DNA of 64,000 bases from a virus (taxonomy: Duplodnaviria; Heunggongvirae; Uroviricota; Caudoviricetes). Positions 15,536-16,770 of the stretch are shown in pieces. The stretch lies in IMG/VR virus record IMGVR_UViG_3300045988_149737. One strand, written 5' to 3'. Both the position numbers and the translations under genes were made by a program. Every line of letters starts with the position of its first letter. Position 1 is the first letter of the stretch. Under the pieces are notes generated by a model, which made no database searches, had not been told where the DNA came from, and was given only the letters and a program-made list of their open reading frames with translations.

Positions 15536-15568
15536 AATGATTCCATACCTACTATGTATGGAATCATT
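15536..15568. other. candidate tyrosine-recombinase core site
   Basis: Perfect 13-bp inverted repeats AATGATTCCATAC / GTATGGAATCATT around 7-bp spacer CTACTAT, about 100 bp upstream of recombinase gene. Confidence 0.5.
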
Positions 15569-15666
15569 ACTGAAAATGAGTTACTTTGACTCTTGATCCT
15601 ATAAGAATCTATGCCTAATATACTGTTTACTTATACAGTACATCGGCGTAACTCGGTGATTGTCAT

Positions 15667-16770
15667 ATGAAAAATAGCTTTGACAGAGCACGCGCAGCGG
15701 AGAACACCTCAAAAGAGGCGATTGAGTATCTCGAAAGAGCATCTCAAATGCAGGCAGTTATGATCTCCCAGGTCAGCAATGACATGAGATTCTCGGACGC
15801 ATTCATGTTATTCACTCGCTTATCTCTGCTGATAACCAGACGTCGGCCAGAGATCGCTGTTCATTGTATTTTGATACATGTTTTGCCGCACATTGCCGAT
15901 GTAAAAGTAAGTGACATTAATAGGTTCATGGTGAACCAACTGGTCAACCCACTAATACTGGATGGCAAAATTGTTATGGGCCGCCGCGTTTTCTCTCTGA
16001 TGAAGCAGTTCCTTAGCTGGTGTGCCTTCCAGGGGATGATCGACGTATCACCGTTAAACGATATGTCACTAAACAAAGTTGCCGGTGGCGCAAAGCCCAC
16101 ACCTCGCGAGCGGAAGCTGACCGACGCAGAGGTATGGGTGTTCTGGAATATCTGGGACTACTTCAATGTGTGCGCAGGTACAAAATGGGCGGCCAGGCTA
16201 TGTCTTGTATCCGCAAGACGACCTGATGAAGTACTGCGGGCTAAAAAAAGTGAGTTCAATCTTAAGCGTGGGGTTTGGAATCAAGGCAAAAGAAACAAGT
16301 CAGCACGTGAGCATTCGCTGCCTTTAAGCACATTAATGCGCACATGCATTGAAGAGTTGTTCGAATACGGTAAAGATAGCCAGTGGCTCGTTCCTTCGAA
16401 TAAAAAAATCGGGAAAGACCTTCCTATGTCTAAAGTGGCAATAGCCCAGGCATTACGTCGTATTCTGGAACGACCAGAACTGATGGAGCTTGAGCCATTT
16501 ACACCCCGAGATTTGCGCCGTACTGCGCGTAGTTACTTCCCAGCATTAGGCATAAGCCAGGAGGTATCACGTAAAATCATGAACCACAGTCTTGAGGGGA
16601 TAGATCGGGTCTACGACCGGCACGATTATATGGACGAGATGCGAGACGCCTTAGAAAGTTTCTCGACGTACATCGCATCAATCGTAGAGCAACCGGATTT
16701 AGACGAAATTGACCACAAATTTAAGGGAGATCGTCTATCAACAGAGCTTATTCGTGTAAATTTTTCATAG
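15667..16770 (+). CDS. tyrosine recombinase (phage integrase family)
   Basis: C-terminal LRRTARSY...GIS.EV..KIMNHS...VYDRHDY pattern matches R..H-R-Y catalytic region; true start may be internal. Confidence 0.6.
   Translation: MKNSFDRARAAENTSKEAIEYLERASQMQAVMISQVSNDMRFSDAFMLFTRLSLLITRRRPEIAVHCILIHVLPHIADVKVSDINRFMVNQLVNPLILDGKIVMGRRVFSLMKQFLSWCAFQGMIDVSPLNDMSLNKVAGGAKPTPRERKLTDAEVWVFWNIWDYFNVCAGTKWAARLCLVSARRPDEVLRAKKSEFNLKRGVWNQGKRNKSAREHSLPLSTLMRTCIEELFEYGKDSQWLVPSNKKIGKDLPMSKVAIAQALRRILERPELMELEPFTPRDLRRTARSYFPALGISQEVSRKIMNHSLEGIDRVYDRHDYMDEMRDALESFSTYIASIVEQPDLDEIDHKFKGDRLSTELIRVNFS

Follow-up and report, generated by a model that had tools for sequence, protein, structure and literature searches.

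Phage-plasmids of the SSU5/pHCM2/pMT1 group carry, beside a tyrosine recombinase gene, a perfect palindrome that is very probably the lox-like target site of that recombinase. The DNA analyzed here is a 64,000-nucleotide (nt) stretch of a member of the Caudoviricetes (IMG/VR record IMGVR_UViG_3300045988_149737), referred to as the window throughout, which we identify from its relatives as an Escherichia coli phage-plasmid of this group. Its recombinase gene, int, encodes the protein Int, and the palindrome lies upstream of int (Table 1). Taking all observations together, we consider it likely that the palindrome is the core site of Int, that it probably serves multimer resolution with cargo exchange as a by-product, and that int is linked to the SOS response. 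Among the roles considered for the site, resolution of plasmid multimers appears the most likely. A tyrosine recombinase is among the persistent genes of the SSU5 supercommunity, for which no site was defined (PMC7969092; PMC12977533). No description of the site or of either of the two arm sequences reported below was found in the searchable literature.

The site in the window reads AATGATTCCATAC-CTACTAT-GTATGGAATCATT, a pair of perfect 13-nt inverted repeats separated by a spacer of 7 base pairs (bp), and it ends 98 bp before the ATG of int. An initial annotation made from the letters alone had proposed a perfect 13-7-13 inverted repeat about 100 bp upstream of an integrase-family gene, and both the repeat and its distance from the 367-codon reading frame were borne out. 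Five exact copies of the 13-mer are present in the window, on the plus strand at 11683-11695, 12695-12707, and 15536-15548 and on the minus strand at 15556-15568 and 21587-21599, compared with no occurrence in 100 dinucleotide-preserving shuffles. Long palindromes are not rare in the window, and it is the repetition of the arms and their conservation in relatives that set 15536-15568 apart. Three further palindromes with perfect arms of at least 13 nt are located at 4279-4313, 34350-34384, and 50083-50115, and each is probably a terminator or an operator. Of these, 34350-34384 closely follows the 3' end of a replication-helicase-like gene (34404-35459, minus strand). GC skew does not switch at the palindrome, and prediction on the palindrome and the half-sites returned no adjoining promoter or terminator above chance.

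Int matched the Pfam family Phage_integrase (PF00589) with an E-value (E) of 4.7e-10 and 39.9 bits (cut-off 27.1) and PHROG 1, integrase, with E 8.5e-47. Residues R185, K211, R284, H307, and Y316, which were assigned as catalytic from motif position and not from structural superposition, are kept across 10-32 homologues. Throughout the Int clade, RDLRRT replaces the usual HxLRHT, placing Arg281 at the His-II position. An AlphaFold model of Int reached a predicted local distance difference test score (pLDDT) of 86.4 and a predicted template modeling score (pTM) of 0.79, with the N-terminal 60 residues helical. The best folds found for this model by Foldseek in the PDB were lambda Int 75-356, archaeal Xer (XerA), Tn1549 Int, XerH, IntI, and Cre, with probability 1.0, while phmmer of Int against PDB sequences gave no match. 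In a search of 5.8 billion proteins, the Int family formed an isolated Enterobacterales clade with at least 44% identity. The nearest proteins outside the clade were P4-type integrases, with at most 34% identity (23-34%), which carry Arm-DNA-bind_3 (PF13356). Neither PF13356 nor another arm-binding domain was present in any member of the Int clade. Since Int would comprise only core-binding and catalytic domains and acts beside a symmetric site, the pair resembles a Cre/Xer style system rather than a directional lambda/P4 style system.

The association of the palindrome with Int was examined in 68 loci carrying an Int homologue (45-100% identity), which were collected from PLSDB matches and from a scan of one genome per species. 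Absence of the palindrome from recombinase-bearing relatives had been named in the initial annotation as an outcome that would speak against the site. Instead, a 13-7-13 palindrome was found upstream of the homologue in all 68 loci, with at least 11 of the 13 arm positions complementary, at 76-285 bp from the protein match. Almost every locus has perfectly symmetric arms. Palindrome-bearing loci include large non-phage plasmids of Pantoea, Rahnella, Erwinia, Ewingella, and Hafnia as well as contigs of Chimaeribacter.

Two arm classes were distinguished, and they track the divergence of Int. Class A arms (TGATTCCATAC) accompany Int proteins at least 56% identical to the query and are found in SSU5/pHCM2/pMT1/Klebsiella/Enterobacter phage-plasmids and three Chimaeribacter contigs. 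Class B arms (TGACTCCAGAC) accompany Int proteins 45-53% identical to the query, in Pantoea, Rahnella, Erwinia, Ewingella, Hafnia, Morganella, and Xenorhabdus. The classes differ by two substitutions at the same positions in both arms. Within class A, the arms are invariant and the spacer and flanks drift (spacers CTACTAT, CTATTAA, TTAATAG, TTGGTAG, TTATATA, CTATAGA, TTGTAAG, and TTGGAAG), and in class B most spacers read TTAATAG or, in reverse complement, CTATTAA. Relative to int, TTAATAG was counted 29 times and CTATTAA 15 times across all loci, so either the site would have flipped repeatedly or its orientation may be unconstrained.

Most class B loci lie in metabolic or virulence gene neighborhoods on replicons of 100-700 kb, several of them labeled plasmids, and the Chimaeribacter loci are likewise non-phage. 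A homologue of the helix-turn-helix (HTH) repressor encoded next to int in the window was missing at 51 of the 53 class B loci and at all three Chimaeribacter loci (54 of 56 together). As Int and the palindrome are kept without repressor or phage genes, the site would belong to Int and not to the repressor or the phage. This joint travel of palindrome and Int provides the strongest evidence that the palindrome is Int's own site.

Two ~100-kb contigs, L052 (Xenorhabdus hominickii) and L055 (Morganella psychrotolerans), combine class B arms (TGACTCCAGAC) with an SSU5-like context, and arm class is thus not strictly tied to phage versus non-phage context. Both contigs carry repressor and cobT homologues and no half-sites.

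A survey of the module covered 5,426 complete genomes of E. coli, of which 248 (~4.6%) carried the int region, at 250 places, all on plasmids and none chromosomal. The site was searched with a 39-bp query (11-nt word, E up to 10), for which a palindrome counts as two places because it matches on both strands. It was present in 252 genomes, always plasmid-borne and one per plasmid, with 0 of 504 places chromosomal. The search for attB-like matches in host genomes, proposed in the initial annotation, returned no chromosomal match in these genomes up to E 10. Given a symmetric, single-copy, plasmid-only site and an Int without an arm-binding domain, recombination between identical sites is the likeliest reaction. 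The palindrome had been described as the core of either resolution or integration. The first of these functions is favored, and the second is disfavored by the lack of chromosomal copies and of an attB in these E. coli genomes and by the lack of an arm-binding domain.

In the mechanism that we propose, one Int monomer would bind each identical 13-bp arm, and strands would be exchanged within the AT-rich spacer of 7 bp, in the manner of loxP, FRT, and dif. Recombination between identical sites would convert plasmid or phage-genome multimers into monomers. Int may also cyclize incoming DNA at the site, as Cre does in P1. If co-resident relatives exchanged strands at their sites and then recombined homologously at another place, the DNA to the left of the site would be swapped, a step for which there is partial evidence and which would account for the exact end of the accessory-gene slot at the left arm.

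The region between the site and int contains a putative sigma-70-type promoter, read from the sequence, and an exact LexA box that covers its -10 hexamer (Table 1). The same promoter region is conserved among the relatives pMT1 and pHCM2 and those of Klebsiella. Just one other box of the LexA type occurs in the window, at 63517-63536 with one mismatch, and its position 17 bp upstream of a UmuD-like gene (63553-63942; PHROG 811, E 2.7e-54) supports the int box as genuine. The box implies that int would be SOS-induced under LexA control in most phage-plasmid members. It was found in 10 of 16 class A sources (15 loci and the window) versus 0 of 53 class B loci, suggesting that SOS control is an add-on of the phage-plasmids. 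The HTH repressor gene is convergent with int, with a 6-bp overlap (16765-16770). We speculate that transcription of int under SOS induction would continue antisense into the repressor gene and could disturb expression of the repressor, which might act as an induction mechanism.

To the left of the palindrome lies a variable cargo slot that spans from grxA to the first arm, and its left limit is a terminator after grxA and not a site. In the window, the slot holds an open reading frame (ORF) of 202 amino acids and a YafO-family toxin gene (Pfam YafO_toxin, E 2e-21), and the same pair occupies the slot of a Klebsiella plasmid (L005, 5202-6227). Cyrano and pHCM2 carry a reverse-oriented moron in this position, and other lineages carry colicin immunity, AbiGi, or Phd/RelE genes, the last in another Klebsiella lineage (L008, 5951-6525). 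In pMT1 (L003), the slot (1115-6869) contains the whole F1 capsule locus, caf1R-caf1M-caf1A-caf1, and ends exactly at the palindrome. Toxin-antitoxin-type modules thus stand directly beside the site in the window, L005, and L008. This placement mirrors that of the toxin-antitoxin pairs that commonly adjoin the res sites of Tn3-family transposons (PMC7157771).

Pairwise BLAST comparisons placed the return of homology at the first base of the left arm, at 15536 between the window and Cyrano and at 6870/6871 between pMT1 and pHCM2. The window and pHCM2, and the window and Klebsiella, also regain homology at this base. Between pMT1 and pHCM2, homology stops ~20-40 nt short of the position of the half-site s2 (Table 1) and returns at the first base of the palindrome. 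Among 42 class A pairs, 26 had their break between positions -5 and +3 relative to the left arm's first base, including 17 with a break exactly at 0. Among the 60 alignments listed for the 248 E. coli genomes, most have their first base at query positions 35-37, corresponding to window positions 15534-15536. In class B, homology boundaries fall at the arm far less consistently. We regard the left-arm boundary as the expected trace of Int-mediated exchange between co-resident relatives, which would be supportive but not decisive.

The same boundary, which in many comparisons meets the left arm with single-base precision, could be read as the edge of an integron-like cargo platform, in which SOS-induced Int inserts or exchanges accessory segments at the palindrome as its selected function. 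The high diversity of the cargo, from YafO, Phd/RelE, AbiGi, and colicin immunity to the caf1 operon of pMT1, fits such a platform. So does the LexA box upstream of int, since integron integrases are under SOS control. Nevertheless, the palindrome is always intact, whereas the entry of a circle with a different site would leave two hybrid sites. No arm copies or attC-like repeats stand between cargo genes, and no arm-like motif was found between grxA and the palindrome in 8 genomes when up to 4 mismatches in 15 were allowed. The intact palindrome and the lack of arm-like scars between cargo genes make the insertion of foreign circles into the site unlikely. The slot is moreover bounded on its left by a terminator, and the class B module lacks the LexA box and places its boundaries less consistently at the arm. 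A dedicated cargo platform is thus an improbable account of the module.

Another explanation is that the palindrome is an operator, bound by the HTH repressor or serving only autoregulation by Int, with no strand exchange. The perfect dyad precedes the -35 hexamer of int by ~25 bp, and a repressor gene is adjacent. In Cyrano and pHCM2, the palindrome also adjoins the start of the divergent moron CYRAN_43, which is expressed 723-fold above background (PMC9928086). Against this, the architecture and its co-varying arms accompany Int at the 51 class B and three Chimaeribacter loci that lack a repressor homologue. Two 13-bp arms around a 7-bp AT-rich spacer have the geometry of a tyrosine-recombinase site, and clade-wide conservation of Int's catalytic residues points to catalysis beyond binding. 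We judge a purely regulatory role to be quite improbable.

A phage attachment core, through which Int would integrate the element into the host chromosome under some conditions, is slightly less probable still. The nearest sequence relatives of Int are P4-type phage integrases, and annotation of the gene reads "site-specific integrase". However, the survey of E. coli genomes returned no chromosomal int, site, or attB-like match, an arm-binding domain is missing throughout the clade, and a scan of neighboring ORFs detected no Xis-like Pfam domain. The near-universal symmetry of the arms argues in the same direction, and SSU5-type elements are treated as non-integrative in published surveys (PMC12977533). 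A hairpin acting as terminator, insulator, or RNA-processing stem-loop between cargo and int is very improbable, because although the palindrome folds into a hairpin (13-bp stem, 7-nt loop, -20.5 kcal/mol, z-score -5.1) and the two-arm changes between classes keep base pairing, it has no T-tract, is not called as a terminator, has an arm sequence that beyond pairing is invariant among Int relatives of 56-100% identity, and recurs elsewhere as single conserved arms without a partner.

These single arms are the half-sites. The initial annotation had listed two copies of the 13-mer beyond the palindrome. Both exist, but they start at 11683 and 12695 rather than at 11686 and 12697, and a third copy at 21587-21599 within dnaE had been missed. 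With the adjoining 7 bp included, s1 (11683-11702) and s4 (21580-21599) form a perfect 20-nt inverted repeat, from which s2 (12695-12714) is one base off. The s1 motif encodes MIPYI at the start of a 50-amino-acid ORF (11684-11836). A degenerate copy lies inside int (TTGATTCCAAAC), and pMT1, pHCM2, Klebsiella, and Kluyvera carry it in exact form. Conservation of the W204-N-Q206 codons may account for this copy, which makes it the weakest of the sites.

Half-sites are confined to SSU5-type phage-plasmids with class A arms, where they occupy syntenic positions, and the int copy is found in several lineages. Their 11-mer and the following ATC are invariant or nearly so, compared with an overall flank column identity of 0.58-0.84. 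At s1, the 11-mer and ATC are invariant in 6 diverged genomes versus a flank identity of 0.72-0.80, and at s2 the 11-mer identity is 0.98 versus 0.58-0.60 for the flanks in 6 genomes. In DnaE, the encoded CMESL falls in a variable loop and is kept only where the DNA motif is kept, next to neighboring residues that vary (MR, ER, GG, NG, and KG). Two Klebsiella lineages (L007 and L008) have no dnaE motif and carry an unrelated peptide in place of CMESL. As CMESL tracks the DNA motif amid variable residues, selection on the half-sites acts on the DNA. The half-sites point toward the palindrome, since every copy to its left is on the plus strand and every copy to its right is on the minus strand. 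For four independent sites, such inward polarity would arise by chance in ~1 of 8 cases.

No half-site has a recognizable second arm, and no further copies were found in the rest of a 108-kb relative. Synthetic junctions served to look for rearranged forms. None of 368 matching plasmids contained the junction expected from s1-s4 inversion, and none of 200 plasmids contained the one expected from loss of the segment that separates s2 and the palindrome. The 7 bp beside the arm differ between half-sites in most lineages, which would block productive exchange between them. The absence of junctions and the differing 7 bp suggest that the half-sites are not crossover partners. Homology breakpoints come close to half-sites but do not coincide with them, as the Klebsiella breakpoint is ~47 nt away from s1 and that of pMT1 falls no more than a few tens of nt from s2. 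A scan of IMG/VR with a 14-mer half-site gave mostly chance single matches.

Several other explanations were rejected. The half-sites are unlikely to be cassette boundaries, as the cargo slot contains no arm-like motifs. Resemblance to Tus/Ter, Fur-box, or IHF sequences was judged by eye and was too weak. RNA-RNA pairing of dnaE mRNA with s1 and s2 transcripts was set aside because the class B data tie the arm sequence to Int.

As a tentative guess, the three or four dispersed half-sites may bind Int as additional single sites that play an accessory or regulatory part, without crossover. A precedent is offered by Tn5401, in which copies of the TnpI-binding motif lie near each transposon end in addition to the resolution site and have regulatory roles (PMC7157771). 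With less confidence, the inward half-sites could form a long-range array of single Int-binding sites specific to SSU5-type elements, with two upstream, one in int, and one in the dnaE loop. We consider such an array rather unlikely. If it exists, SOS-induced Int would moonlight as a regulator or architectural protein and could control lytic replication genes or the lysogeny switch, or it could set up a polar barrier around the resolution site. Such a layout of a recombinase and its sites has not been described for Cre, Xer, or TnpI.

Five points weigh against multimer resolution by Int at the palindrome, with its attendant cargo exchange and accessory half-sites. SOS control is atypical of dedicated multimer-resolution recombinases and is better known for integron integrases and prophage functions. 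The spacer is found in both orientations relative to int, for which the model does not account. Int has Arg281 at the usual His-II position, which may affect catalysis. The homology boundary at the left arm is also expected if the palindrome merely edges a selected block beside an ordinary hotspot. Finally, accessory binding leaves unexplained the 0.7-6 kb distances of the half-sites, the location of one of them in dnaE, and their absence from class B elements.

Table 1. Positions in the window of the recombination module, the half-sites, and neighboring features
Feature	Position	Strand	Description
Half-site s1	11683-11702	+	arm + ATCTCAT; overlaps the ATGA stop/start junction of two small ORFs
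Half-site s2	12695-12714	+	arm + ATCACAT; non-coding, ~200 nt upstream of the tRNA cluster
Transfer RNA (tRNA) cluster	12902-13555		four genes: Asn-GTT, Tyr-GTA, Thr-TGT, Ser-TGA
Variable cargo slot	14370-15535	+	abuts the left arm; 202-amino-acid ORF and YafO-family toxin (14465-15493)
Probable core site (palindrome)	15536-15568		left arm 15536-15548, spacer 15549-15555, right arm 15556-15568
Putative int promoter	15593-15621	+	TTGATC-17-TAATAT, sigma-70-type, read from sequence
LexA box	15621-15640	+	TACTGTTTACTTATACAGTA; exact CTGT-N8-ACAG, over the -10 hexamer
Int, tyrosine recombinase	15667-16770	+	367 amino acids; core-binding and catalytic domains, no arm-binding domain
Degenerate arm copy	16273-16284	-	TTGATTCCAAAC; two mismatches, inside int, codons VWNQ
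HTH regulator	16765-17151	-	homologue of the putative lysogeny repressor CYRAN_45 (PMC9928086); context only, outside the recombination module
Half-site s4	21580-21599	-	arm + ATCTCAT; within dnaE (21334-24852), codons 83-89 (MRCMESL)

Among characterized systems, the module most readily invites comparison with Cre/loxP of P1. Both comprise a tyrosine recombinase of a phage-plasmid and a single-copy site with two 13-bp inverted arms and a short asymmetric spacer, and no accessory proteins are implied. The loxP site has two 13-bp inverted arms around a short spacer. The spacer here is 7 bp, compared with 8 bp in loxP, and there is no detectable sequence relation between the recombinases. Cre chains were matched by Foldseek only at E of at least 0.02, behind lambda Int and Xer. 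The int promoter differs in carrying a LexA box, and the conserved remote half-sites have no counterpart in P1, where Cre serves multimer resolution and cyclization (as cited in PMC7969092).

The TnpI/IRS systems of Tn4430 and Tn5401 likewise place a resolution site just upstream of the recombinase gene and use one motif both for the inverted repeats of the core and for additional single copies, and TnpI also regulates transcription (PMC7157771). The DR1 and DR2 copies of TnpI lie within ~100 bp of the core, whereas here the extra copies are 0.7-6 kb away, one of them in a polymerase gene. No transposase is involved here, and the comparison is made at the level of the superfamily. The P4-type (CP4-57-like) integrases have in common with Int the central Phage_int_M domain and the catalytic domain, at 23-34% identity. 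They differ in that the Int clade has helical N-terminal 60 residues instead of PF13356, is plasmid-only in E. coli, and uses a symmetric palindrome and not a tRNA-derived attP.

XerH/difH and XerCD/dif also use inverted arms around a 6-7-bp center for replicon dimer resolution and have a similar fold (5jk0 and 5jjv were matched). In contrast to Xer, the recombinase here is plasmid-encoded beside its own site, with no sign of FtsK dependence. The inward polarity of the half-sites may speculatively be likened to that of FtsK-orienting polar sequences (KOPS) or Ter. In the Rci shufflon of IncI plasmids, the sfx sites have one conserved arm with the adjoining 7 bp and an unrelated second arm, a layout that the half-sites share. 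Unlike shufflons, which occur in many arrangements, the inversion junction was found in none of the 368 plasmids, and the 7 bp differ between half-sites in most lineages. Overall, the core module appears to be a well-supported member of the simple systems that pair a tyrosine recombinase with an inverted-repeat site, and the SOS promoter and half-sites would distinguish it from plain Cre/lox.

Phage-plasmids of the SSU5/pHCM2/pMT1 type are common, and the group includes pHCM2 of Salmonella Typhi and pMT1 of Yersinia pestis. A defined site would provide a testable handle on how these 100-kb elements are maintained as monomers. It would also help to explain why accessory genes, such as toxin-antitoxin and defense genes and the F1 capsule operon of pMT1, cluster at one place. 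The LexA box would tie the recombinase to the SOS response. With two natural specificity classes (TGATTCCATAC and TGACTCCAGAC) and a compact, apparently accessory-free pair of recombinase and site, the family may offer orthogonal tools for genome engineering. The conserved half-sites, above all the copy written into the polymerase gene dnaE, are a feature for which the model has no explanation.

The window region is 98-99% identical to ~200 E. coli plasmids described as "non-mobilizable IncFIB" (105-120 kb) and to phage Cyrano (pLF82), with 98.7% identity both to plasmid NZ_CP075058 and to Cyrano. Farther relatives are Klebsiella phage-plasmids, Salmonella phage SSU5, pHCM2, and Y. pestis pMT1. 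Compared with pHCM2 (L004, 1445-8981), the type phage SSU5 (L071, NC_018843) has a 7.5-kb deletion that takes out the cargo slot, palindrome, int, and repressor. SSU5 retains half-sites s1 and s4, and its s2 has one mismatch. The loss of the int and repressor region would fit the behavior of SSU5 as a lytic isolate, and for this reason its natural lack of int and the site says little about a role in multimer resolution.

The tRNA genes of the window are interspersed with repeated hairpins of the CAACGTTGTG type (12514-12635 and 13558-13635). The tRNA set varies among close relatives, and Cyrano is without tRNA-Tyr. A RecA-like gene at 28837-31176 encodes 779 amino acids because an intein bearing a LAGLIDADG endonuclease domain interrupts it (Pfam RecA, Intein_splicing, and LAGLIDADG_3), and its SSU5 homologue is annotated as 1077 nt.

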